In this document: positions 25,152-39,770 of the stretch, piece by piece
How positions within the stretch are numbered: position 1 is the stretch's first letter
Layout: every line of letters begins with the position of its first letter
NCBI GenBank assembly: GCA_039586815.1
Contig: JBDHJR010000022.1
Coordinates: 785 to 64,784, forward strand
DNA length: 64,000 nt
From: Gemmatimonadota bacterium
GTDB taxonomy: Bacteria; Gemmatimonadota; Gemmatimonadetes; Gemmatimonadales; GWC2-71-9
Direction: 5' to 3'
Made by a program: the position numbers and the translations under genes
Notes under the pieces: model-generated
The model's database searches: none
The model's input: the letters and a program-made list of their open reading frames with translations, nothing else
Told to the model about the DNA's origin: nothing

Positions 25152-25622
25152 GTGCAGAGAACGCTTCCACTGGCTGTGGCATGCGCCCTGGCGATCGCCG
25201 GGGTCGCGCGGGCACAGACCGCGGCGGATTCGGCGGGCATCCGCGCGGCGGCGCTGGACTACATCGAGGGCTGGTACGAGGGAAGCACCGAGCGCATGGA
25301 GCGAGCCGTGCATCCCGAGCTGGCCAAGCGGATCGTGATGGTGACTCCGCAGGCCGGCGGGAGCACCCTGCGCAGCATGACTGCCGCAGACCTGGTGGGG
25401 GCGACGGGGGCGGGGTACGGCACTCAGACGCCGGCCGACCAGCGGCGCACCGACGTGCGCATTCTCGACATCTACGAGAACGTGGCCAGCGTGCGAGTGG
25501 ACGCGCACGACTGGATCGACTATCTGCACATCGCCCGGTGGAACGACGGCTGGGTGATCGTGAACGTGCTGTGGGAGCTCACCCCGGAGGCGAAGCAGCG
25601 GATGGCTGCCGGGGGTGGCTGA
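25152..25622 (+). CDS. secreted NTF2-fold (SnoaL / putative lumazine-binding-like) protein
   Basis: GTG start after GGAGGAGGG. Signal peptide LAVACALAIAGVARAQ. ALDYIEGWYEG...WIDYLHIARWNDGWVIVNVLW. Confidence 0.6.
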   Translation: MQRTLPLAVACALAIAGVARAQTAADSAGIRAAALDYIEGWYEGSTERMERAVHPELAKRIVMVTPQAGGSTLRSMTAADLVGATGAGYGTQTPADQRRTDVRILDIYENVASVRVDAHDWIDYLHIARWNDGWVIVNVLWELTPEAKQRMAAGGG

Positions 25623-25632
25623 GCGGGGGCGG

Positions 25633-26631
25633 ATGACGAAGCCGCAGGGAACATTGCTCCTGAACCGGAGCGACATCACATCACTGCTGGATCTGCAGGA
25701 CTACCTCCGGGTCGTCGAGGACGCGTTTCGGCTGCACGCCGAAGGACGGACACTCGAGACCGGCCTGCTCCATGTGGACGCCGTGGACGGCGAGTTCCAC
25801 GTCAAGGCGGGGGGCTTGAAGGGTGAGCGCACCTACTTCGCGCTCAAGGTGAACGGCGGGTTCTTCCAGAACCGGGCTCGGTTCGATCTGCCCAACATCC
25901 AGGGCACCATCATCCTGTGCGACGGGGAGAGCGGCTACCCCCTGGCGCTCATGGACTCCACGGCGATCACGCTGGGGCGCACCGGAGCGACCACGGGACT
26001 CGCTGCACGACTCATGGCGCGGCAGGGTTCCTCGGTCACGGCGGTGTGCGGCTGCGGGAATCAGGGCCGCATACAGCTCCGGGCGGTGGCTCACGTCCTG
26101 CCCATCCGTGAGGTCTACGCGTGGGACGAGGATCAGGACGCGGCGCAGGAGTTCGCGGCCGAGATGGCCGGTGAGCTCTCGCTCGAAGTGCGGGCGGTAG
26201 CGATGCCCGGTCAGGCGACCCGCCGTGGCGACGTGTGTATTACCTGCACGCCGGCTCACGCCCCGTTCGTTAGTGCCGGGATGCTGGCACCGGGCGCCTT
26301 CGTGGCCGCCGTGGGAGCCGACAGCCCGGAGAAGCACGAGGTGGAGCCCGAGCTCCTCGCCTCCGCCACGGTGGTGGTGGACCTGCTGGAGCAGTGTGCG
26401 GCGGTGGGCGATCTGCACCACGCCCTGGAGCGCGATCTCATGGCGCGGGATGACGTCTATGCCGAGCTGGGTGAGATCGTGGCGGGCCGCAAGCCCGGCC
26501 GCCGCTCCGCTGAGGAGATCGTCGTGTTCGACGCCACCGGCACGGGGCTGCAGGACGCAGCCGGTGCCGCGGCGGCGTACGAGAAGGCCCAGGCGAGAGG
26601 GGTGGGGAGCTACTTCGACTTCTTTGCCTGA
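25633..26631 (+). CDS. ornithine cyclodeaminase / mu-crystallin family protein
   Basis: FHVKAGGL...FALKVNGGF, Rossmann motif VCGCGNQGRIQLRAV, C-terminus IVVFDATGTGLQD. Confidence 0.85.
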   Translation: MTKPQGTLLLNRSDITSLLDLQDYLRVVEDAFRLHAEGRTLETGLLHVDAVDGEFHVKAGGLKGERTYFALKVNGGFFQNRARFDLPNIQGTIILCDGESGYPLALMDSTAITLGRTGATTGLAARLMARQGSSVTAVCGCGNQGRIQLRAVAHVLPIREVYAWDEDQDAAQEFAAEMAGELSLEVRAVAMPGQATRRGDVCITCTPAHAPFVSAGMLAPGAFVAAVGADSPEKHEVEPELLASATVVVDLLEQCAAVGDLHHALERDLMARDDVYAELGEIVAGRKPGRRSAEEIVVFDATGTGLQDAAGAAAAYEKAQARGVGSYFDFFA

Positions 26632-26635
26632 GGGA

Positions 26636-28558
26636 CTACTCCAACTGGGCCAGGCGCTCGCCCAACTCGCGGGCCGAGGAAAGCCGTTGTTCCGGCTGCT
26701 TGGCCAGGAGCTGCAGGATCAACCCAGACAGCGCCGGTGGGATGTCGCCGTTGACTTCGTGCGGCGCCGTCGGCTCCTCGCTCAGCATCATTGCCACGAG
26801 CGACATCGGTGACTTGGCCGCGAACGGCAGGCTTCCCGTGAGGCATTCGTAGAGCACCACGCCCACGGCGTAGAGATCGCTGCGCTCGTCCAGCGCCGAC
26901 TCGGCGAGCAGCTGCTCCGGCGACATGTACGCCGGCGTGCCTACCGACAGCCCCGTCTCGGTGATCCCCATCGTCGCCTCGCTCAGGCGGGCGATCCCGA
27001 AGTCCATCACCTTCAACACCCCGTCGGCGTCGAGCAGCAGATTCTGCGGCTTCACGTCGCGGTGGATGACTCCGACGCCGTGCGCCACCTCCAATGCCTG
27101 GGCGAGCTGGGAGGCGATCGCGAGCGCGGCCGGCACACCCAGCCGGCCGCGGCTGTCGATCAGGTGCCGCACCGTCATGCCCTCCACGTACTCCATAGTG
27201 AGGTAGTACACTCCCGACCACTCGCCGAAGTCGTGGGTGCGCACCACGTTGCGGTGGGTGATGCGGCGGGCCAACCGAATTTCCGTCTTGAAGCGCTCGA
27301 TCAGCGTCGGGTCCACGACCAGCTCGGGGCGCAGCGTCTTGATGGCGATCTCCTCGTCCAGCTCCAGGTCGCGAGCCCGGTACACTGCCCCCATCGCCCC
27401 CTGCCCGAGCGGGGTCGTGATCTGGTAGCGGTCGGCGAAGCGCTCACTGGTGGGGAGGTTGGCGTGGTCGAGCTGGCTCCCGGCCGATGACGCCCCGTCG
27501 CTTGCCGACTCGATCTCGCGGCGCAGGTCCTCTACCTGGCCCCGCAGGCGGTCCTCGCGGGCCCGTACTTCGGTGGCCATGCGGTCGAACACGCGGGCCA
27601 GGCGGCCCAGTTCGTCGTTGCGCCCCGTGGTTTCGGCCAGGTTGCCGGAGCTGTACGAGCCGGCCTCCACCGCCGACGCGGCGTCGATCACCGAGCGCAC
27701 CTGCTCCAGGTACTCCATCTCGCGGTCGCGCAGCCGCTTCTTGTCGAGCGAGGCCGTGATGCGAGCCCGCAGCAGTACCGGGTCGAAGGGCTTGGGCAGG
27801 TAGTCTTCGGCTCCGTGCTCGATGCAGCGCACCACGCTCGATAGGTCGTCCAGCGCCGAGATCATGATCACGGGAAGGTGGCGCGTCTCGGGCGATTGCT
27901 TGAGGCGCTCCAACACCTCGTAACCATCCATTTCGGGCATCATGACGTCGAGCAGGACCAGGTCGAACGACCCACCGCTGACCATCTCCAGCGCAACCCT
28001 GCCGTTCTCCGCGGACTCCACTGCGTGACCCTGCCGCCTGAGGCGGCGCTCCAGCAGCACACGGTTGTCCTCCACGTCATCCACGACGAGGATGCGCGCC
28101 TGGTCGTCCGCGGGGACCGCGGCATCATCCTCCTCCGCTGCGGCGGCTGCGGCGGGTGCGTCCGCGGCGCCCTGCGCCACGAGCTTGTCCGCCGCGCTCA
28201 GTATGCGGCGCAGGTCGGAGGTGAATTCCTCGTCCTTGCCGCCGGCCTGCAGCAGCGGGCTGAGCGCGCGTACGATGCGCTGCTGCGGCTCGGCCAGGGA
28301 CGTGTAGAGTGCCGCGACGTCGGCGCGGCTGACGGAGACGCCGCCCGAGCTGAGCGTGCCGTTGATGAGCGTGAGCACGTCGCGTGCGGCAACCAGCGTC
28401 TGCTCGAGCGCTGCCTTGCCGTCCTGATCGCCGTCGGGCGCATCCTCGAGCAGCATCTCGGCGTAACCCACGATGTGATTGACCGGTGTACGCAGCTCGT
28501 GCCGCAGCTCGGACAGCGCCTGCGGCGTGAGCGTGCCGCTCCCGCTTGGCTGGCTCAC
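26636..28558 (-). CDS. HisKA(DHp)-only domain + receiver + Hanks-type Ser/Thr protein kinase
   Basis: GTG at 28558 overlaps the upstream stop (GTGA). H-box LSELRHELRTPVNHIVGYAEML with no N/G1/F/G2 boxes after it. REC: ILVVDDVEDNR...DLVLLDVMMPEMDG...YLPKP. Kinase: GQGAMGAVY, AIKTL, HRDVKPQN, DFGIA, GTPAYMSPE. Confidence 0.85.
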   Translation of the reverse strand: MSQPSGSGTLTPQALSELRHELRTPVNHIVGYAEMLLEDAPDGDQDGKAALEQTLVAARDVLTLINGTLSSGGVSVSRADVAALYTSLAEPQQRIVRALSPLLQAGGKDEEFTSDLRRILSAADKLVAQGAADAPAAAAAAEEDDAAVPADDQARILVVDDVEDNRVLLERRLRRQGHAVESAENGRVALEMVSGGSFDLVLLDVMMPEMDGYEVLERLKQSPETRHLPVIMISALDDLSSVVRCIEHGAEDYLPKPFDPVLLRARITASLDKKRLRDREMEYLEQVRSVIDAASAVEAGSYSSGNLAETTGRNDELGRLARVFDRMATEVRAREDRLRGQVEDLRREIESASDGASSAGSQLDHANLPTSERFADRYQITTPLGQGAMGAVYRARDLELDEEIAIKTLRPELVVDPTLIERFKTEIRLARRITHRNVVRTHDFGEWSGVYYLTMEYVEGMTVRHLIDSRGRLGVPAALAIASQLAQALEVAHGVGVIHRDVKPQNLLLDADGVLKVMDFGIARLSEATMGITETGLSVGTPAYMSPEQLLAESALDERSDLYAVGVVLYECLTGSLPFAAKSPMSLVAMMLSEEPTAPHEVNGDIPPALSGLILQLLAKQPEQRLSSARELGERLAQLE

Positions 28559-28929
28559 TCCTGCTTCCCCAGCAGGGATTCCATCTTCGAGAGCAGGCGC
28601 GGCAGCTCGATCGGCTTGGTGTCGTAGTCGTCGCACCCGGCTTCGAGCGCCTTTTCGCGATCGCCCGCCATGGCGTGCGCGGTGAGCGCGATGATCGGGA
28701 CCTCCTGCGTCGCGGGCTCGGCACGCAGCTGGCGGGTGGCCTCCCAGCCGTCGATCTCAGGCAGGCTCATGTCCATCAGGATGAGGTCGTAGCCGTCCGC
28801 CTTGGCCATCTCCACGCCCTGGCGACCGTCCACCGCGATGGCGACATCGAAGCCCTTGCGCTGGAGCCGGCGCGACAGCATGTCGCGGTTCATCTCGTTG
28901 TCTTCAACCAACAGGATCCTCGGCATCAA
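28555..28929 (-). CDS. stand-alone response-regulator receiver (CheY-like)
   Basis: MMPRILLVEDNEMNRDML...DLILMDMSLPEIDGWE...ALTAHAM...DYDTKP, 124 aa. Confidence 0.9.
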   Translation of the reverse strand: MMPRILLVEDNEMNRDMLSRRLQRKGFDVAIAVDGRQGVEMAKADGYDLILMDMSLPEIDGWEATRQLRAEPATQEVPIIALTAHAMAGDREKALEAGCDDYDTKPIELPRLLSKMESLLGKQE

Positions 28930-28942
28930 TCCCCCGTGGGCG

Positions 28943-31093
28943 CTATTTCGCCGCGGCCCCGGCGGGCGCTGGTGCCACTACCGCCGGCAGGCGTACGGTG
29001 AACGTGGTTCCTTCCCCTGGCGCGCTCTGGACCGAAACGTCGCCGCCCATCATCTCGCAGAACCGCCGCGTGATGGCGAGCCCCAAGCCCGTGCCGCCGT
29101 ACTTGCTCGTGGTGGACGCATCCGCCTGCGAGAACGCCTCGAACAGACGGTCCATCTGCTCCTCCGTCATGCCGATGCCCGTATCGCTCACGCTGACGAT
29201 GATCGCGTCGCCCTCGAATGGCGCCTCGTCCGCGCGGCGCCGCGTGTCGAGTACTACGGTGCCCCCCTCGGTGAACTTGCAGGCATTCGACAGCAGGTTG
29301 AGCAGCATCTGCCGCACCTTGGTGAGGTCGGCGTGCATGCGACCCAACTGCGCCTCCCGGCGAACCTCCAACTGATTGTCGTTCTTGTCCACCAGGGGCC
29401 GGGCCGTGGTCACCACGTCGTCCAGCATCGCGTCGACGTCGAACTCCTCGATGAAGAGGTCCATCCGCCCGGCCTCGATCTTGGAGAGATCGAGCACGTT
29501 GTTGATCAGCGAGAGCAGGTGGCGCCCGGCAGTGTTGATCTTCTCCAGGTCGGTGCCGAACTCGCCGTGGCCGAGGTCGACGACCTCCTCCTGCAGCATC
29601 TCGCTGTAGCCGATGATCGCATTGAGCGGCGTGCGCAGCTCGTGGCTCATGCTCGCGAGAAATTGGCTCTTGGCGCTGTTTGCGGCCTCGGCCTCCTGCC
29701 GCGCGCTGAGCAACTCGGTGATGTCGTGGTACAGTCCCATCAGGCCGACACGCTCCCCGTCCACGATCACCGGCACACCGAGCACCTCGACGTCCACCAT
29801 CGTACCGTCCTTGCGGCGCCGGCGTCCGATGCCGTGCACCGCGTGGTCCAGGGCGTCGCGCGTGTACTGCTCTGCCTCGGTGCGGGAGGCTTCCGTGGTG
29901 ATCAGCTCGTCGAGGTTGCGACCCACCGCCTCCGCGCTGGAGTAGCCGAACAGCCGCTCGAAGGCGGGATTGCACGAGTAGATGTGATAGTCCCGACCGA
30001 GCGTCACGATCGCTACGGGGCTGTTCTGCAGCACCTCCTCGAAGTACTGCTTCTGTCTCTGTGCGGCGGTGTAGAGGCGGGCGTTCTCGATCGCGATGGC
30101 CGCCTGAGGCGCAAACATGTTGAGCAGCCGCAGGTCCTCGGGACCGAACACCCGCTCGGGATCGGAGTGCACCGTGGCGATGGCGCCCACCAGGCGGCGC
30201 CCGATCAGCAACGGCGCCGCCATCACCGAGTGCACGGTCAGGTCGGCGTACTTGGCCGAGCGCCCCAGCCACTCGTGATACGACGGGATGATGAGCGGCT
30301 CGTGCGTGCGTGCCACCGTTCCCATCGCGCCCTCTCCCAGCTTGAGCCGCGTGCCGGTGGACTCCTTGCCGATGTCCTGGCTCGCCACGACCTGCAGCTC
30401 CTGTGACTCCTCCTCGAAGATGGCTACCTCGCCGCCCGTCACCCCCAGCAGGCTCACGGCGCGGCGCAGCACCGCCTGCAGCACGCGCGGCAGCTCCAGC
30501 TCGGCAGAGAGGTCGGCCATGGTGTCGAGCAACGCCTTGTGTTCGTCGGCGCGCAGCCGCTCCGCCACCAGCAGCCGGGCGCGGCCCACCGCGATCCCCG
30601 CCTGGTTGGCCGCAGCCGTGAGGATCTCGAAGTCGTCATCGCCGAACGCATCGGGCTCCGCGCTCTCCACCACGAGCACGCCGATGGTCTGACCGTCCAC
30701 GCGCAGCGGCACGTCCAGCTCGGAGCCGGTGCTGAGGCTCGGCAGGTACTTGCTCTCGCGGGTGACGTCGGGCGTGTAGTGCAGCTTTCCGTCCATCAGG
30801 GCCTGCTCGCTGAGGCCCTCGCCCCGGTGTACGCGCCAGTCGGGTGGCACGTCGGGCCAGCCCACGCTCGCCTGGAGCACCCGATCTCCGGTTTCGGTAT
30901 CCAGCAGGAAGACGCCCAGGAAGTTGTAACCCAGCGCTTCGTCCTGCAGCCCGCTCACCACCGACTGGTAGATCGCCTCCTCGTCCTGTGCAGCGGCAAT
31001 CGCCGTGCTCAGCCGCAGCAGCGCGGCCTGACGCCGTGCGAGCGCTCCCCGCGAGTTCGTGTGCGTCTCGGCCGCGCCGGCGCGCTCGCTCAT
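28943..31093 (-). CDS. cytoplasmic sensor histidine kinase, GAF-GAF-PAS-HisKA-HATPase
   Basis: ATG at 31093 (ATGA with the upstream stop). H-box [20 protein letters not shown]; N box [11 protein letters not shown]; G boxes DTGIGM and GGTGLGLAI. No receiver, no TM segment. Confidence 0.9.
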
Positions 31094-34000
31094 GATTGCC
31101 GCACCCCGGCCGGAGGCCGACCGACCACCAGCCCCCGCAGGTGCGCCAGCAGTCGGTCGCGGTCCAGGCCGCGCTTCTCGACGATCCACTCGACCCCCCC
31201 GTTGAGCCGCTGGCGCTCTCCCTCGGTGAGGTCCTTGCCGGTGATTACGACGACCGGCACCGTGCGGCAGCCCTCCAGCTCGCGGAAGGCGGCCAGGAAC
31301 TCGAACCCGTCCATCTCCGGCATCATGAGGTCCAGCAGCACCAGCTCGGGCCGCTGCTCGGCCACCCGGTCGAGGGCAACGCTGCCGTTCTCCGCCTCGG
31401 TGACGCGCCACCCTTGCTGCTCCAGGGCGCGCCGCAGCAGTGCCCGCGTGGCGCCGTCGTCGTCCACTACCAGCACTGCCGCCTCCGCACTCGGGCGGCT
31501 GTAGCGGGTCAGCACCGTGGCGAGTCGCTCCCGGTCTATCGGCTTGGTCAGGTACTCCGAGGCACCCAGCGCGTACCCCAGGTTCTTGTCGTCCACGATC
31601 GTCAGCATGACGACGGGAATGTCGCGCAGCTCCGCGTCCTCCTTGAGCGTCGAGAGCACCGTCCAGCCGTCCATTCCCGGCATGACGACGTCCAGCGTGA
31701 TCACGTCGGGTCGCTCCGCGCGCGCCACGCGCAAACCGCTGCCGCCATCGGGCGCTTCCAGCACGCGGAAGCCCTCCTTGGACAGGATGCGCGCCATCAG
31801 CGTGCGCGCGGCGGGGTCGTCGTCGATCACCAGTACCGATCCCGCGCTGCCGTCGCCGCTGTGCTCCGGTTCAGGGGCGGAGCTTCCGGCCGGTGCAGGC
31901 GCGGCGACTTCCTCGTCCCCACTGATGATCGCGGGAAGTCGCACCGTGAAGGTCGTGCCACTCCCCTCCGCGCTCTCCACCGTGATGCTGCCGCCCATCA
32001 TCTCGGAAAACCGCTTGCTCAGTGCCAGCCCGAGTCCGGTGCCGCCGTATTTCGCCGCGGTGGAGGCGTCGGCCTGGGCGAACGCCTCGAACAGCCTGTC
32101 CAGCTGTTCGCGGGTCATGCCGATGCCGGTATCCCGCACGGCGAACAGCAACCACTCGCCCGCGCCGGAGTCTCCGTCCCGTGTGACCTCGAGCGAGATG
32201 GTGCCCCGTTCGGTGAACTTTGCGGCGTTGGACAGCAGGTTGAGCAGCACCTGACGCACCCGCGTCCCATCGGATTGCATGGTTCCCAGAGTGTCGCCGG
32301 CGCGCAGCTGCAGCTCGTTGCCGTTCTTCTTGATGAGGGGCTCCACGGTCGTGGCCACGTCCGAGACTGCGGCTGCCACGTCGAACGTCTCCACGTAGAG
32401 CTCCATCTTGCCCGCTTCGATCTTCGACAGATCCAGCACGTCGTTGATCAGGCTCAGCAGATGGCGGCCCGCGCCGTGGATCTTCTCTAGGTCGGGAACG
32501 AATCCGTCCTGCCCGGCGTCCCGCGCGTCCTCCTGCAGCATCTCTGCGTAGCCGAGAATGGCGTTCAGCGGCGTGCGCAACTCGTGACTCATGCTGGCGA
32601 GGAACTTGCTCTTTGCCGCGTTGGCGGCCTCGGCGTCGCGTCGCGCGTCCCTCAGCTCCGTGATGTCGTGGTACAGCGCGATGATCCCGACCTGCTCTCC
32701 CCCCACGAGAACCGGGATCGTGAACAGCTCCACGTCCACCATGGAACCGTCCTTGCGGCGCCGGCGTCCCGTGCCCTTGGTCATCTTGCCGGCCAGACCC
32801 TCCTGGGTGTAACCGGCCGCGGCGGCGCGCGTCTCGGGAGTGGTCACCAGCTCGTCGAGATTGCGACCCACCACCTCGTCCTGGGTGTAGCCGTACAGCC
32901 TCTCGAACGCCGGATTGCACGACACGATGTTGAAGTCGAGGTCGAGGTTGACGATCGCGACCGGGTTGTTCTGCACCAGGTCCTGGAAGTACCGCTGCGA
33001 CGCCTCGAACAGGCGCGCGTTCTCGATTGCGATCGCGGCCTGCGGAGCGAACAGCTCGAGCCGTCGGAGGTCTTCCCCGCCGAACTCGCGTGACGGGTCG
33101 CCGTGCACCGCGGCAATGGCTCCCACCAGGCGGTTGCCGATGATCAGCGGAGTGGCGATGACCGACTGCAGCTCGGTCTGGGTGTACTGGTGCTGGTTCG
33201 AGCGGCCCTCCCACTCCTGGTACCGTGGGATGATGAGCGGCTCCCGTGTCTTGGCCACTCGTCCCATGGCGCCCTCGCCGATCGCCATGCGGGTGCCCAC
33301 GGCGTCGGAGGGCATGTTGTGGCTCGCCACGATGGCGAGCTCGTTGCGCCACTCGTCGACGGTGGCGAGCTCCCCTCCGGTGACGTTGAGGAGGTCCACG
33401 GCGCGCTTCAGCACCCGCTGCAGCACCTTGGAAAGCTCGAGCTCGCCGGACAGATCCTTGAGCGTGTCGAGCAGCGCCTGCTGCTCCCCTGCCTGCTGCC
33501 GCTCGGCAGTGAACAGCCGTGCGTTCTCGATGGCGATAGCCGCCTGCGCCGCGAACAGGTTGAGCAGACGGAGATCCTCGCGGCCGAACTCCCGCTGCGG
33601 GTCGGTGTGCACCGCCGCGATGGCTCCCACCAGGCGAGTGCCGATCAGCAGCGGCGTGACCGCGGCCGCCCGTATGTCTCCCGTGTACTGTGGAGACGCC
33701 CCCTCCCACTCCTGGTAGTCGGGTATGATGAGCGGCTCCCGCGTCACGGCCACCCGTCCCATGCCCCCCTCGCCGAGCTGCATCCGGGTGCCGGTAGAGT
33801 CCTTCCCGATGCCGTGGCTCGCCACCACGACCAGCTCCTCGGATGCTTCGTCCAGCACGGCCAGCTCGCCGCCGGATACGTCCAGCAGAGGCACCGCCCG
33901 CTCGAGCACCGCCTGAAGCAGCGTGTCCAGCTCGAGCTCGCCCGAGAGGTCGGCGAGAGTATCGAGCAGCGCCCGCTGCTCGCTGCTGCGTTTGCGCTCG

Positions 34001-34397
34001 GCCGACAGCAACCGCACGCGGCCGATGGCGATGCTCGCCTGGTTCGCGGCGGCCGCCAGGATGTCGAGGTCGCCCTGGCTGAAGGAGCCGCCCTGCTCAC
34101 GCCGCACCACGAGCTCGCCGATCGCACTCTGGTCGATGCGCAGGGGGAGCCGCAGCTCGGAGCGGGAGTCGCCGGTGTCCTTGAAGCGTCCGGCGCTCGC
34201 CTTGAGTGACGGAGCGAAGGAGGCCGTGCCGGCCATGTACAGGCCCACGCCGTCGAAGCCGAACGCCGGGTGCCGCAATCCCTCGACAACGCTGCGGCAC
34301 ACGTCGTCTTCGTCCTGCGCCTCCGCAATGCGGGTGCTCAGGCCCAGCAGGGCCGACCGCATCTCGGCGGCGCTGGATTCGGGGAGCGAGGGTCTCT

Positions 34398-34401
<4 letters not shown>
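31090..34401 (-). CDS. hybrid sensor histidine kinase, GAF x3-PAS-HisKA-HATPase-REC-REC
   Basis: ATG at 34401 (ATGA). [38 protein letters not shown]1: VLVIDDD...[15 protein letters not shown]2: VLVVDDD...[12 protein letters not shown]. Confidence 0.9.
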
Positions 34402-37352
<2,951 letters not shown>

Positions 37353-37465: not shown

Positions 37466-37516
37466 GTCGTGCGCCCTAAGCGGGAACAATTCTATCAACA
37501 TTTAGGAGGTGCGGTG

Positions 37517-39433
37517 ATGAGCAGTTGGCGCAGACGCCTGGGGGTACCAGGCGTCATCGTGGCCCTGGGTCTTGCCGGGGCATGCAGTGAGGCAGGGGAG
37601 GATCTGACGTCGCCCGATTCGAGCGACGTCGTTTCGCTGGCGGAGCCCGGCGAGGAGCTGACGCCGCTGTTCCAGCACGTGGACCCAGTCTTCGTGGCAG
37701 ACAATCCGTCCTGCACGGACCTGGGATACTCATTCGGCTTCAAGCCTCAGCCTGAGCCGCCTCCGACGGGCGACTATGGCTTCCCGAACACCAACTTGAC
37801 GGTCTCAATCAGTTCTGACGGCACCTACTTCGACTGGACCTCGGACCTCGGCGTCGACGCCGTGATCGTCAAGGGCGGCCCGAACGCCAACCTGTACGTT
37901 TACGATCCGCCCCAGGAGTCTCTCGGTGACGACGGGCTGCACTCGCCCATCAACCCCAACAACGACGAGCCGTTTGCCATCAGCCACATCGAGTTCTGCT
38001 ACGACTTCGAGGTGGACGTCAGCAAGGACGCCGCCACGGAGCTCACCCGCACGTACGATTGGGGCATCACGAAGGACCCCAACGGGAGCTACGTCGGCTT
38101 CCCTGGCGACGCCTTCGCGCACGAGTACACGATCACGGTGGATCGCACCGGCTTCACCGACAGCGACTGGGCAGTGTCCGGCACCATCACCATCGAGAAC
38201 AACACGCCGCTTGACGCGACGATCGAGAGCGTGAGTGACGTGATTTCTGGCGGTGTCGCGGCGACCGTGGACTGTGGTGTCGATTTCCCCCACACGCTGG
38301 CGTCTGGCGAAAGCCTGTCATGCACCTATTCCGCGGGGCTTTCCGACGGGACGGACCGCCTCAACACCGCGACCGTCGGGACCAGCGGCGACGTGGGCGG
38401 CGGAGAGGCCACGGCGGACGTCGACTTCTCCAACGCCACCATCACAGAGGTGAATGCGGAGGTCAACGTCACTGATGATTTCGGTACGTCGGACACCGGT
38501 GACGACAAGGACTTCGGCCCGCTGGGTGACGACGCTTCGGTCAACTACTCCCGGGACTTCGTCTGCCCGACCGACCTGAGCCTCTACACCGACGGCGTGT
38601 ATACCGAGTCGGTCACGAACACGGCCACGATCGACGAGACCGGTGATTCCGACGACGCCACCGTCGACCTCACCTGTTACGTCCCGGCCACGGCGAAGGT
38701 CGTGAAGACCACGACCGAGGGTGGCGAGGACATCGGGCAGTTCCCGTTCAGCTTCCAGCTGTACGCCCCGAGCGGAGACCTGATCGAGACCAAGACGCTC
38801 GGCACGAGCGGCGGCGACGTGACGTTTGACGCCGACCTGGAGGACGAGGGTACCTGGACGGTCAAGGAGATCCTGCCGGCCGGTTGGGTCAGCACGACCG
38901 ATCTGACGTGTGAAATCGTCGTCGCCTATCCCGGCAGCGAGAATCAGACGTACACCTGCGATTTCGACAACGTCGAGATGGGTCGCGTGAACCTGCTCAA
39001 GCTGACCAATGGTCTGCCGACCACGAATCAGGTGTGGAGCTTCACTCTCTACGACGCCTACGGCAACGCCGTGGCGACAGATGGCACACCGCCGGCGTTG
39101 CTCGACTTCGGCAACGTCGACCTGATTCCGGGCGCAACCTACACGGTGTGTGAGAGCCCGATCCCGGCCAGCTGGACTGTGCAGTGGGCCGTGGACGAAA
39201 ACGGCAACGGCGTGATCGACGCAGGCGAGACGCTGCCGTTCGTTGGCGGCGAGGCGGATCTCATGAATGACGGCCTGCTCCAGGTGTACGATCCGGATCC
39301 CAACTACGGGCAGAACGGTGCCGTCAATGACACGCGCTGTGTGAACTTCCAGCCAGCCCCCGGCGAGATTACCAGCTTCATCGTCGACAATCAGGAACGG
39401 CGGTCCGGCGGAAGGCTGGTTCCTGCTCGATGA
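37517..39433 (+). CDS. adhesin-like lipoprotein with several Ig/prealbumin-like repeats (reading frame interrupted near the 3' end)
   Basis: AGGAGG 7 nt upstream of the ATG. Lipobox MSSWRRRLGVPGVIVALGLAGAC. Asp/Thr/Asn-rich strands with paired Cys. TWTVKEILPAGW and YTVCESPIPASW are SpaA/Cna-B-like motifs. Confidence 0.7.
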   Translation: MSSWRRRLGVPGVIVALGLAGACSEAGEDLTSPDSSDVVSLAEPGEELTPLFQHVDPVFVADNPSCTDLGYSFGFKPQPEPPPTGDYGFPNTNLTVSISSDGTYFDWTSDLGVDAVIVKGGPNANLYVYDPPQESLGDDGLHSPINPNNDEPFAISHIEFCYDFEVDVSKDAATELTRTYDWGITKDPNGSYVGFPGDAFAHEYTITVDRTGFTDSDWAVSGTITIENNTPLDATIESVSDVISGGVAATVDCGVDFPHTLASGESLSCTYSAGLSDGTDRLNTATVGTSGDVGGGEATADVDFSNATITEVNAEVNVTDDFGTSDTGDDKDFGPLGDDASVNYSRDFVCPTDLSLYTDGVYTESVTNTATIDETGDSDDATVDLTCYVPATAKVVKTTTEGGEDIGQFPFSFQLYAPSGDLIETKTLGTSGGDVTFDADLEDEGTWTVKEILPAGWVSTTDLTCEIVVAYPGSENQTYTCDFDNVEMGRVNLLKLTNGLPTTNQVWSFTLYDAYGNAVATDGTPPALLDFGNVDLIPGATYTVCESPIPASWTVQWAVDENGNGVIDAGETLPFVGGEADLMNDGLLQVYDPDPNYGQNGAVNDTRCVNFQPAPGEITSFIVDNQERRSGGRLVPAR

Positions 39434-39485
39434 TCTGATTCCGACCACGGTTGGTGCCACGACGATTTCCAACTGCGAGGAAGGG

Positions 39486-39770
39486 GTGAGCATCCTCGAC
39501 CAGCGGGATCTCGACAGCGGCAGGAAGAGGGCCAGTGACGCGGCCTACACCCTGGCCATGCACCTGCTGGCGGCCAAGCTGAACCTGGCGGCGGGTGCGG
39601 AGACGTGCAGTGGGGTAGTGGATGCAGTTGCCGCCGGCGATGCCTTGTTGCAGAGCATCGGGTTCGACGGCACTGGCAGCTATCTGCGTCCGAAGGATGC
39701 CGAGTACCAGACGGCTCTGGCTCTGGCAGCCACGCTGGACGAGTACAACAACGGCAACCTCTGCCAGTAA
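39486..39770 (+). CDS. C-terminal helical domain, probably the +1-frame continuation of the 37517 lipoprotein gene
   Basis: This frame is open from 39345 and reads ...GGPAEGWFLLDDLIPTTVGATTISNCEEGVSILDQRD...LLAAKLNLAAGAETC...GNLCQ. The GTG at 39486 is only the track's first start codon. Confidence 0.5.
   Translation: MSILDQRDLDSGRKRASDAAYTLAMHLLAAKLNLAAGAETCSGVVDAVAAGDALLQSIGFDGTGSYLRPKDAEYQTALALAATLDEYNNGNLCQ

Follow-up and report, generated by a model that had tools for sequence, protein, structure and literature searches.

The protein analysed here (hereafter, the target) combines, from N to C terminus, tandem DHp hairpins, a receiver (REC), a HAMP domain and a Hanks-type Ser/Thr kinase, and it is encoded by the last gene of an operon that also carries three GAF-PAS histidine kinases and a single-domain receiver (Table 1). 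We see about an even chance that the target would unite the last steps of a multistep His-Asp phosphorelay in one chain, with a Ser/Thr kinase as the output. A protein that would both relay phosphate and gate its own kinase is the best-supported reading of the locus, because the operon is conserved. The initial annotation had placed an orphan H-box DHp, a receiver and a Hanks kinase in a single polypeptide, and this was confirmed by Pfam, by alignment and by models.

Table 1 The target gene, the domains that it encodes and the other genes of its operon. Positions refer to the window, i.e., the whole stretch of 64,000 nucleotides that was analysed.
Feature	Position	Strand	Description
HK-A gene	34398..37352	(-)	hybrid GAF-GAF-PAS-HisKA-HATPase_c-REC-REC; upper coordinate is that of the maximal ORF, true start uncertain
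HK-B gene	31090..34401	(-)	1103 aa; three GAF, then PAS-HisKA-HATPase_c-REC-REC (Pfam); ATG overlaps HK-A stop
HK-C gene	28943..31093	(-)	716 aa; GAF-GAF-PAS-HisKA-HATPase_c, no receiver (Pfam); ATG overlaps HK-B stop
Single-domain receiver gene	28555..28929	(-)	about 123 aa; DivK-like; stop overlaps target start
Target gene	26636..28558	(-)	640 aa; GTG start at 28558, stop codon 26636-26638
DHp hairpin 1	28349..28531	(-)	residues 10-70; helices 12-39 and 45-68; H-box LRHELRTPVNHIVGYAEMLLED
DHp hairpin 2	28166..28336	(-)	residues 75-131; helices 78-104 and 110-127/131; degenerate duplicate of hairpin 1
Flexible linker	28100..28165	(-)	about residues 132-153; Ala/Pro/acid-rich
Receiver domain	27743..28099	(-)	residues 154-272; Response_reg at 156-267, 104 bits (Pfam)
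HAMP domain and signalling helix	27494..27721	(-)	about residues 280-355
Hanks-type Ser/Thr kinase	26639..27445	(-)	residues 372-640; Pkinase at 378-628, 173 bits (Pfam)

Translation start and domains of the target

The maximal ORF of the target spans 26636..28636 on the minus strand (ORF list), and within it the GTG at 28558 shares bases with the TGA stop codon of the upstream receiver gene in a GTGA junction (GGAGTGAGCC). The homologues form more than 120 full-length clusters (60-97% identity, 95-100% query coverage) with an architecture common to all, and cluster lengths of 626-659 aa are in line with the 640-aa target product, the single exception being 610 aa. This exception (P0035) has a called start that lies past the H-box and was probably mis-called. 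The upstream GTG at 28636 (666 aa) is an unlikely start, given its 80-nt overlap with the receiver gene and the narrow length range of the orthologues. A start downstream of the H-box, which the initial annotation had raised as a concern, was ruled out by the start/stop overlap and by conservation: the H-box is the best conserved N-terminal part at the protein level and is therefore translated.

Conservation was assessed in an alignment of 25 sequences with 60-97% identity, in which "nearly invariant" denotes at least 90%. H20, D160/D161, D204, S234, K256 and the kinase motif residues were invariant or conserved in at least 90% of these sequences. The named homologues are mostly from Gemmatimonadota, and the matches are all MAGs. 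An NCBIfam scan of the target returned no model at or above its cut-off, and a search for transcripts found the target sequence only in DNA metagenomes from sediments.

The receiver contains the acidic pocket (D160/D161), the phospho-acceptor D204 (27947-27949), S234 and K256, all invariant, and the aromatic switch residue (Y253), which is Y, F or H among orthologues. Its AlphaFold2 model has (beta/alpha)5 secondary structure. With its Response_reg match, the domain thus has the complete residue set of a CheY-like receiver, and the acidic pocket, phospho-acceptor and KP motif noted previously are all present. The kinase motifs G385xG387xxG390, K407, E426, H499-R500-D501, N506, D519-F520-G521, T541-P542 and P547-E548 are likewise invariant. 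By sequence, the kinase appears intact, with every motif claimed for it earlier (GxGxxG, the VAIK Lys, HRD, DFG and the APE-like motif) in place; it is an RD kinase, and its activation loop contains Thr.

A HAMP domain, overlooked in the initial annotation, lies between the receiver and the kinase. It follows on without a break from helix alpha5 of the receiver (model helix 260-299) and has the AS1, connector and AS2 elements and the DExG...F..M signature. The Pfam match at residues 287-332 (24.1 bits) is under the cut-off of 25, and PF00672 is on record for several target orthologues. Residues 287-639 are 46-50% identical to TM-HAMP-kinase paralogues, in which the HAMP domain scores 63.7 bits. 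These TM-HAMP-Pkinase receptor kinases of Gemmatimonadota (e.g., L063, 8047-10071) have paralogous HAMP and kinase domains and receive periplasmic sensor input via transmembrane helices, whereas the target has the tandem DHp and REC as input instead. The HAMP domain is likely a coupling device between the receiver and the kinase.

The tandem DHp hairpins and their predicted fold

Hairpin 1 carries the candidate phospho-acceptor, His20 (codon CAC at 28499-28501), and retains the entire helix for REC docking. HisKA was matched at target residues 14-69 (32.6 bits versus a Pfam cut-off of 26.9), and profile matches in the PDB were to the DHp domains of HK853, RetS and DivL. The hairpin is 40% identical to the DHp of the neighboring HK-C, and its helix alpha1 is almost the same as in the operon kinases and can therefore be expected to dock the receivers that they do. 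A 22-residue block around the H-box is the most conserved N-terminal segment among orthologues, and H20 is present in 24 of the 25 aligned sequences, being absent only from the shortened gene call P0035. The N-terminal H-box reported earlier is thus upheld.

Among the features of class I histidine kinases, the target has the H-box on DHp helix 1 and lacks the domain with the N, G1, F and G2 boxes. Pfam gave no HATPase_c family in the target even at E<=1, only about 57 helical residues and the disordered linker lie between hairpin 1 and REC, and the AlphaFold2 models contain helices only, with no alpha/beta domain before the receiver. That a divergent HATPase_c might lie hidden in front of REC, a case for which the initial annotation had suggested a relaxed-threshold search, was rejected on these grounds, i.e., the absence of a match, the helix-only models and too little sequence. 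As it has no ATP-binding domain, the target would be unable to phosphorylate its own His, and we infer that autokinase activity is absent.

The roughly 120 residues before the receiver had been described as devoid of ATPase boxes. This held, but the region is not featureless, as about 60 structured residues were identified by hhalign as a degenerate DHp duplicate. Hairpin 2 has Thr86 at the His position and retains the helix-kink Pro91 and core residues. Alignment of hairpin 1 with hairpin 2 gave a probability of 97.5% (E 8.2e-12), and the reversed control and 30 shuffled controls all scored 12.4 or less. Hairpin 2 also matched the DHp of the three histidine kinases in the window (probability 94.7%, E 6e-8), versus 0.2% for their CA domain. 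An origin of helices 3-4 as remnants of a CA domain (its first helix and its N-box helix) was rejected on the same comparison, which favours DHp (94.7%) over the N-box region (0.2%). On this sequence evidence, what fills the stretch without ATPase boxes is a second DHp helical hairpin that has degenerated, not a decayed ATPase.

The two hairpins differ consistently across the module sequences. First hairpins have His in 57/57, T/N at H+4 in 57/57 and Pro at H+5 in 56/57, and the H+1 residue is E/D in 51/57 and T or N in 6/57. The His-equivalent position of second hairpins is His in no more than 3/57 and otherwise holds residues such as E, D, A and T. In the intermediate relatives P0202 and P0256 the second H-box is still recognisable.

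For residues 1-133, modeled as a monomer alone, AlphaFold2 predicted that the four helices pack into one compact bundle (pLDDT 90.8, pTM 0.84). Only the four helices listed in Table 1 precede the receiver, followed by a disordered linker (pLDDT <50 at residues 129-151) whose length and sequence differ between orthologues. The initial annotation had looked to structure prediction for a DHp dimer without an ATP lid; the DHp helices and the lack of an alpha/beta domain agree with this, but the bundle is predicted to form from a single chain. Duplication of the hairpin likewise predicts a monomer with the bundle built inside one chain, in contrast to the dimer of Spo0B, and from the model we read the N-terminus as a DHp that is pseudo-dimeric within a single chain and has one His and one active face, analogous to HPt. 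Alternatively, a domain-swapped or conventional dimer may form. Foldseek of the N-terminal model against the PDB returned generic four-helix bundles only (best E 0.06), with no HPt or Spo0B match, and Pfam gave no Hpt match in the target at E<=1. We regard the Foldseek outcome as neutral with respect to an HPt-like function.

ChpT is a DHp-derived histidine phosphotransferase that acts between two receivers and retains a C-terminal alpha/beta CA-like domain (PMC3433190). The earlier suggestion that a DHp without a CA domain is how Spo0B and ChpT look was therefore not borne out: both keep a C-terminal alpha/beta (degenerate Bergerat) domain, whereas the helix-only models of the target have none. 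In other respects the target is predicted to resemble them: they are DHp-derived, with His on helix 1 of a four-helix bundle and no autokinase, and in their phosphorelays they link one receiver to another, as proposed here for the target. They differ in being homodimers with two active His, whereas the target is predicted to have one His per bundle with an in-chain duplicate as the second half, and the target module, unlike Spo0B and ChpT, shares a polypeptide with the receiver that would be its acceptor.

HPt domains (ArcB-C, Ypd1 and HptB) are, like the predicted target module, monomeric four-helix bundles with a single His that shuttle phosphate from an intermediate to a terminal receiver, but there is no sequence or Foldseek similarity between the two. 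Judged by its sequence relationships, the target module is an analogue of HPt and not a member of it, with a putative independent origin from HisKA by duplication. Hybrid histidine kinases (DHp-CA-REC) share with the target the HisKA subtype of the operon and a C-terminal receiver on a flexible tether; unlike them, the target has no CA domain and hence presumably no autokinase. The presence of an output (HAMP-kinase) after the target receiver suggests that it is a terminal rather than an intermediate receiver.

Operon organisation and relatives of the module

Two of the three histidine kinases in the operon, HK-A and HK-B, are hybrid kinases. The HK-A/HK-B and HK-B/HK-C junctions are both ATGA, the receiver/target junction is GTGA, and HK-C and the receiver gene lie 14 nt apart. 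As read from the sequence, the operon is translationally coupled and conserved. An orthologue of the receiver (66-91% identity) adjoins the target in 45/45 orthologous loci, and a histidine kinase lies upstream of the target orthologue in 41/42 loci. The closest solved structures to the single-domain receiver are PleD REC1 and DivK. No HPt domain was detected by Pfam in any of the operon proteins.

A profile search yielded 1978 proteins at E<=1e-10, of which 150 were retrieved. The tandem DHp and REC module was also found with cyclase, HD-GYP, PP2C, DUF835 and histidine-kinase outputs. In five of six loci with these other outputs, a 69-85% identical single-domain receiver gene is located immediately upstream of the module, usually preceded by a histidine kinase or hybrid histidine kinase, and the sixth locus has a hybrid histidine kinase nearby. 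The sensor kinases at these loci vary (GAF-PAS, phosphonate-binding and HAMP). Apart from the module, no His-phosphotransfer partner lies near the hybrid kinases of the operon or of three further loci (L082, L085 and L086). We tentatively propose, at somewhat short of an even chance, that the tandem-duplicated DHp is an undescribed single-chain, one-His phosphotransfer class independent of HPt, and that with REC and the DivK-like receiver, its constant partner, it makes up a portable phosphorelay input cassette on varied outputs, namely Hanks kinases, adenylate/guanylate cyclases, HD-GYP phosphodiesterases, PP2C phosphatases and additional histidine kinases, with a Ser/Thr kinase at its end, in the same polypeptide, in Gemmatimonadota.

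Proposed phosphorelay and alternative readings

In the proposed relay, autophosphorylation would take place in at least one of the GAF-PAS histidine kinases that are co-transcribed with the target, and the phosphate would go either to the co-translated and very highly conserved single-domain receiver or to a hybrid-kinase receiver. This receiver would then back-transfer the phosphate to His20, like Spo0F to Spo0B, and His20 would pass it on to Asp204 of the target's own receiver across the flexible 25-residue linker. Activation of this receiver (S234/Y253 switch) may be transmitted along the continuous alpha5 into a dimeric HAMP bundle and the signalling helix, which would set the relative position of two kinase domains and in this way control activation-loop autophosphorylation and substrate phosphorylation. 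In the yeast HOG pathway (Sln1-Ypd1-Ssk1 to the Ssk2/22 MAPKKK), a terminal receiver likewise controls a Ser/Thr kinase. There the components are separate proteins and Ssk1 activates by binding, whereas the target would unite an HPt analogue, a receiver and a kinase in one bacterial polypeptide, coupled via HAMP.

Two features of the locus weigh against such a relay and fit a docking or phosphatase role. The T/N at H+4, found in all first hairpins, is the HisKA phosphatase residue and fits a phosphatase role equally well, and the isolated DHp domain of EnvZ (domain A) has phosphatase activity. The single-domain receiver is DivK-like, with PleD REC1 and DivK nearest among solved structures; the DHp of DivL binds DivK~P, and DivK acts partly by allosteric DHp binding. 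The tandem DHp could thus be a module that carries no phosphate and instead binds the phosphorylated single-domain receiver or the target's own receiver, either dephosphorylating it or signalling allosterically to REC, HAMP and kinase, with the target's own receiver phosphorylated directly by HK-C. The docking helix of hairpin 1, being so similar to those of the operon kinases, could then compete with them for the receiver. We consider this reading unlikely, if still a serious one. Docking alone needs no His, yet His is kept in every first hairpin and is gone from 54/57 second hairpins. DivL, a kinase-like protein whose DHp binds a DivK receiver, has swapped its His for Tyr and has a CA domain, whereas in the target the His is invariant and no CA domain is present. 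In addition, the hybrid kinases of the operon and of L082, L085 and L086 would be left without a His-phosphotransfer partner nearby.

A further point against the relay is that the H+1 position is still mostly acidic. HisKA kinases use this acidic residue for autophosphorylation, and its retention also fits trans-phosphorylation by a neighboring CA domain. The target would then be a split histidine kinase, with His20 phosphorylated in trans by, e.g., the receiverless HK-C, and the single-domain receiver acting as a sink or modulator. The identity between hairpin 1 and the HK-C DHp is consistent with this, as is translational coupling of the genes, which favours complex formation. We nevertheless hold it to be improbable, as HK-C has a complete DHp with a His of its own, the partner conserved over outputs and lineages is the single-domain receiver while the sensor kinases vary by locus, and the H+1 residue is not acidic in every first hairpin (T or N in six). 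That the N-terminal helices are only a scaffold or oligomerisation remnant of a former hybrid kinase, leaving the target a plain response regulator with a kinase output, would accord with the missing ATPase domain, the frequent use of helical bundles as scaffolds and the generic Foldseek matches, but is very improbable given that the H-box block tops N-terminal conservation in the orthologues, that His, T/N and Pro are essentially invariant in distant relatives while the duplicated hairpin has drifted, and that the module travels with a dedicated receiver gene.

To our knowledge, the His carriers of phosphorelays are thought to be of two kinds, monomeric HPt domains and dimeric Spo0B/ChpT proteins, and crosstalk between two-component systems and Hanks kinases has been described mostly in trans. 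If the relay reading is correct, the target would represent a third His carrier, a kinase DHp made monomeric by duplication and with its ATPase lost, and would illustrate a simple two-step route from a kinase to a phosphotransferase. A class of proteins whose present annotation goes no further than incomplete histidine kinase, protein kinase or CheY-like would be accounted for as well. Incomplete histidine kinases lacking HATPase have been mentioned as an annotation class (10.64898/2026.02.27.708494), and in the open-access literature we found neither a description of DHp modules in tandem or single-chain form nor a REC-Hanks kinase fusion that had been characterised. The target is predicted to offer a defined, soluble and testable two-component-to-Hanks wiring in one polypeptide, with REC alpha5 coupled to HAMP, and the closely related receiver paired with the module across unrelated outputs should be a handle for finding and reconstituting such relays. 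These points of significance rest on prediction from sequence, models and gene context.

In one relative with another output (L082), a module-REC-PP2C protein is encoded beside a hybrid histidine kinase and RsbW/RsbV-like genes. This arrangement mirrors the Pseudomonas HptB-HsbR-HsbA pathway, with the module in the place of HptB.

Gene, domain content and homologues

The sole long ORF with homologues at this site runs over 26636..28636 (-), and a GTG start at 28558, overlapping the TGA that terminates the receiver gene upstream (GGAGTGAGCC), gives a product of 640 aa. No HATPase_c-type family was detected in it with Pfam even at E≤1, and none of the NCBIfam models reached its cut-off. The block LRHxLRTPxNHIxGYxEMLLED is the most conserved stretch of the N-terminus and is therefore translated, which places the start upstream of the H-box.

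Among 5.8 billion proteins searched, >120 clusters cover 95-100% of the protein (60-97% identical, 626-659 aa), and nearly all of the taxon-named ones are from Gemmatimonadota. The lone exception in length, P0035 (610 aa), is a gene call that starts after the H-box; HisKA, REC and Pkinase were annotated in all full-length clusters other than this one. In a 25-sequence alignment H20 was kept except in P0035, and the receiver residues D160/D161, D204, S234 and K256 and the kinase residues G385xG387xxG390, K407, E426, HRD 499-501, N506, DFG 519-521 and P547-E548 were invariant or nearly so. The combination of H-box, receiver and kinase in one polypeptide, proposed in the initial annotation, is thus real and conserved, with more structure than was recognised there.

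Features of the 640-aa protein, its operon and neighbours in the window, and partner receivers in other genomes
Feature	Position	Strand	Remarks
HisKA	residues 14-69		Pfam, 32.6 bits (cut-off 26.9)
Response_reg	residues 156-267		Pfam
HAMP	residues 287-332		Pfam, 24.1 bits (below cut-off 25)
Pkinase	residues 378-628		Pfam
HK-A	34398-37352	-	GAF-GAF-PAS-HisKA-HATPase-REC-REC
HK-B	31090-34401	-	three GAF, then PAS-HisKA-HATPase-REC-REC
HK-C	28943-31093	-	GAF-GAF-PAS-HisKA-HATPase, no receiver
Single-domain receiver	28555-28929	-	about 123 aa; partner receiver
Ornithine cyclodeaminase/mu-crystallin	25615-26631	+	downstream, convergent; ends 5 nt from the stop codon of the 640-aa protein
ORF, 654 aa	37469-39433	+	upstream of operon; overlaps 38318-39493
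ORF, 391 aa	38318-39493	-	upstream of operon; overlaps 37469-39433
Partner receiver, L083	6625-6993		
Partner receiver, L084	5370-5741		
Partner receiver, L085	5630-5995		
Partner receiver, L086	5639-6004		
Partner receiver, L087	803-1180		

The receiver has the complete phospho-acceptor set, with Y at the aromatic switch position 253 (Y, F or H in orthologues), and in the AlphaFold2 model its alpha5 continues as one helix (260-299) into the Pfam HAMP segment. At least 20 Gemmatimonadota loci match residues 287-639 at 46-50% identity; in the protein at L063 8047-10071, two hydrophobic segments, the first of them N-terminal, flank an extracytoplasmic region and are followed by HAMP (63.7 bits, Pfam) and Pkinase. 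Since these TM-HAMP-Pkinase paralogues align to residues 287-639, the segment is a true HAMP. By sequence, the protein looks like a HAMP-coupled receptor kinase in which a tandem-DHp + REC module has replaced the transmembrane sensor. The kinase belongs to the RD type and has complete catalytic motifs and conserved Thr residues in the activation loop. HAMP coupled to a Hanks kinase is an uncommon arrangement; paralogous receptor kinases with a TM sensor, HAMP and Pkinase are present in Gemmatimonadota at L063 and about 20 further loci.

Tandem DHp hairpins at the N-terminus

AlphaFold2 models were obtained for the full protein (pLDDT 79) and for residues 1-133 (pLDDT 90.8, pTM 0.84). They contain four N-terminal helices (12-39, 45-68, 78-104 and 110-127/131) followed by a disordered Ala/Pro-rich linker (residues 129-151), and neither model has an alpha/beta domain before the receiver. 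Together with the relaxed Pfam search, this upholds the absence of an ATPase domain noted earlier. The sequence of helix 3 (LYTSLAEPQQRIVRA) can be lined up with that of the H-box helix (LRHELRTPVNHIVGY), as can helix 4 (DLRRILSAADKL) with helix 2 (ALEQTLVAARDV).

A HMMER scan over 1.84 billion representative proteins supplied a 57-sequence alignment of the four-helix module. Hairpin 1 (residues 10-70, with His20) aligned to hairpin 2 (residues 75-131) by hhalign in the register given above (probability 97.5%, E 8.2e-12, score 52, 55 columns), against scores of 10.8 for the reversed template and ≤12.4 for 30 column-shuffled templates. In an independent hhalign test the hairpin 2 profile matched the DHp of the window's three kinases (probability 94.7%, E 6e-8) and not their catalytic ATP-binding (CA) domains (probability 0.2%), ruling out helices 3-4 as a CA remnant. 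The duplication is still plain in the related proteins P0202 (second VRHGLDAPLNQLIGCIEILL) and P0256 (second-hairpin motif LSLELRTPLTTIIGYADLL).

Across the 57 sequences, the His was present in all copies of hairpin 1 and in 3 of hairpin 2, the remainder having E, D, A, T and others. Position H+4 was always T or N in hairpin 1 and variable in hairpin 2, and the kink Pro at H+5 was found in 56/57 and 43/57, respectively. Judging from this alignment, the two copies have evolved asymmetrically. Given their homology and asymmetric conservation, we conclude that the N-terminus is a tandem DHp with one presumably functional and one structural hairpin. It is predicted to close into a single intramolecular up-down-up-down bundle, which in a monomer-only prediction is shaped like a DHp dimer that has a single active face. 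Foldseek matched the N-terminal model only to generic four-helix bundles (best E 0.06), single-chain Rop among them, and to neither HPt nor Spo0B.

Operon, orthologous loci and the partner receiver

The gene is the last of a five-gene, same-strand cluster with junctions, in order, of ATGA, ATGA, a 14-nt spacer with GGGGGA, and GTGA; Pfam found no HPt domain in any of the five proteins. The operon (28555-37352) contains three successive paralogous GAF-PAS kinases joined by ATGA start/stop overlaps; two are hybrids, each carrying two receivers, and the third has none. The arrangement suggests that several inputs feed a single relay. Outside the cluster, the ornithine cyclodeaminase gene was not conserved beside orthologues in the loci compared, and neither upstream ORF had a Pfam match.

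Species-representative genomes were scanned for the N-terminal module with the kinase, and 48 loci were found, mostly in Gemmatimonadota with a few binned as Acidobacteriota. A receiver orthologue (66-91% identity) abuts the start of the gene in all 45 loci with sufficient upstream sequence, and a same-strand GAF-PAS kinase core lies within 2.5 kb in 41/42. Genes flanking the cassette vary from locus to locus, as does the hybrid/non-hybrid mix of the one to three GAF-PAS kinases.

Full-length four-helix matches with a receiver next also occur with other outputs: HisKA+HATPase_c (P0144, P0163, P0172, P0204, P0223, P0231 and others), adenylate/guanylate cyclase (P0121, P0128), SpoIIE/PP2C (P0208), GAF + HD-GYP (P0254) and DUF835 (P0202). 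A receiver-only gene of 121-125 aa lies directly upstream in 5/6 other-output loci examined (L083-L087); in two of them the genes overlap by 4 nt, and a histidine kinase or hybrid kinase usually precedes the receiver gene. Its recurrence across outputs indicates that what is conserved is a unit of the single-domain receiver and a protein made of tandem DHp, REC and output. These receivers are 69-85% identical to that of the window, whereas the modules encoded downstream have diverged much further; such conservation suggests that the receiver may be a hub obliged to fit several partners. Among solved structures, it is nearest to PleD REC1 and DivK.

Three of the related proteins (P0121, P0128 and P0134; L084 5795-8515, L083 7001-9502) have four to six tandem DHp hairpins, alternately His-less and His-bearing, then REC and adenylate/guanylate cyclase. 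From their sequences, these arrays would amount to serial single-chain DHp bundles with one His apiece. P0249 (556 aa) consists almost entirely of six H-box-like hairpins with the His replaced (SFNLRT / SFKLRT), lacks other Pfam domains and has an N-terminal hydrophobic region.

A possible phosphorelay and its alternatives

Sequence and models together establish a DHp predicted to offer a phosphorylatable His in a protein with no means of autophosphorylation, and a tethered, apparently competent receiver linked through HAMP to an apparently competent kinase. Comparison of loci likewise establishes a genomic pairing, seemingly obligate, both to a dedicated receiver and to kinases otherwise lacking a His-phosphotransfer partner. 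The docking surface of the His20 helix is nearly equal, in sequence, to that of the operon kinases. The most economical reading, whose chances we consider about even, is a four-step phosphorelay: a histidine kinase would hand phosphate to the single-domain receiver, or to a hybrid-kinase receiver, from which it would pass to His20 and then to Asp204 of the protein's own receiver, with REC, HAMP and Ser/Thr kinase together as output. A duplication-derived single-chain DHp would thus be the His carrier, and a Ser/Thr kinase the terminal output.

The main rival, that the tandem DHp carries no phosphate but binds or dephosphorylates the receiver, would explain why the phosphatase residue at H+4 is invariant and why the partner is DivK-like; we regard it as rather unlikely, as hairpin 1, and it alone, has strictly kept the His. 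Phosphorylation in trans by a neighbouring CA domain is improbable: the acidic H+1 is mostly kept (51/57), but the partner conserved across lineages is the receiver and not any single kinase. A purely structural tandem DHp fits the conservation pattern poorly and is very improbable.

The proposed step would function like Spo0B/ChpT or HPt. The likeness to Spo0B and ChpT drawn in the initial annotation holds for a His-bearing DHp with no predicted autokinase but not for membership, since ChpT retains a CA-like domain (PMC3433190) and this protein does not; HPt is matched neither in sequence (Pfam) nor in fold (Foldseek). Lacking the CA domain, the protein is not a histidine kinase; such proteins are filed in databases as incomplete histidine kinases (10.64898/2026.02.27.708494). 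Other database labels are protein kinase or CheY-like. Searches of open-access full texts turned up neither tandem or single-chain DHp modules nor a characterised receiver-Hanks kinase fusion.

At the sixth other-output locus (L082 7001-13879), the output of the module-REC protein is SpoIIE (PP2C), and a hybrid GAF kinase, an RsbW-like anti-sigma kinase and an RsbV-like STAS protein are encoded nearby. The arrangement resembles that of the Pseudomonas HptB-HsbR-HsbA partner-switching pathway, the tandem DHp standing in for HptB.
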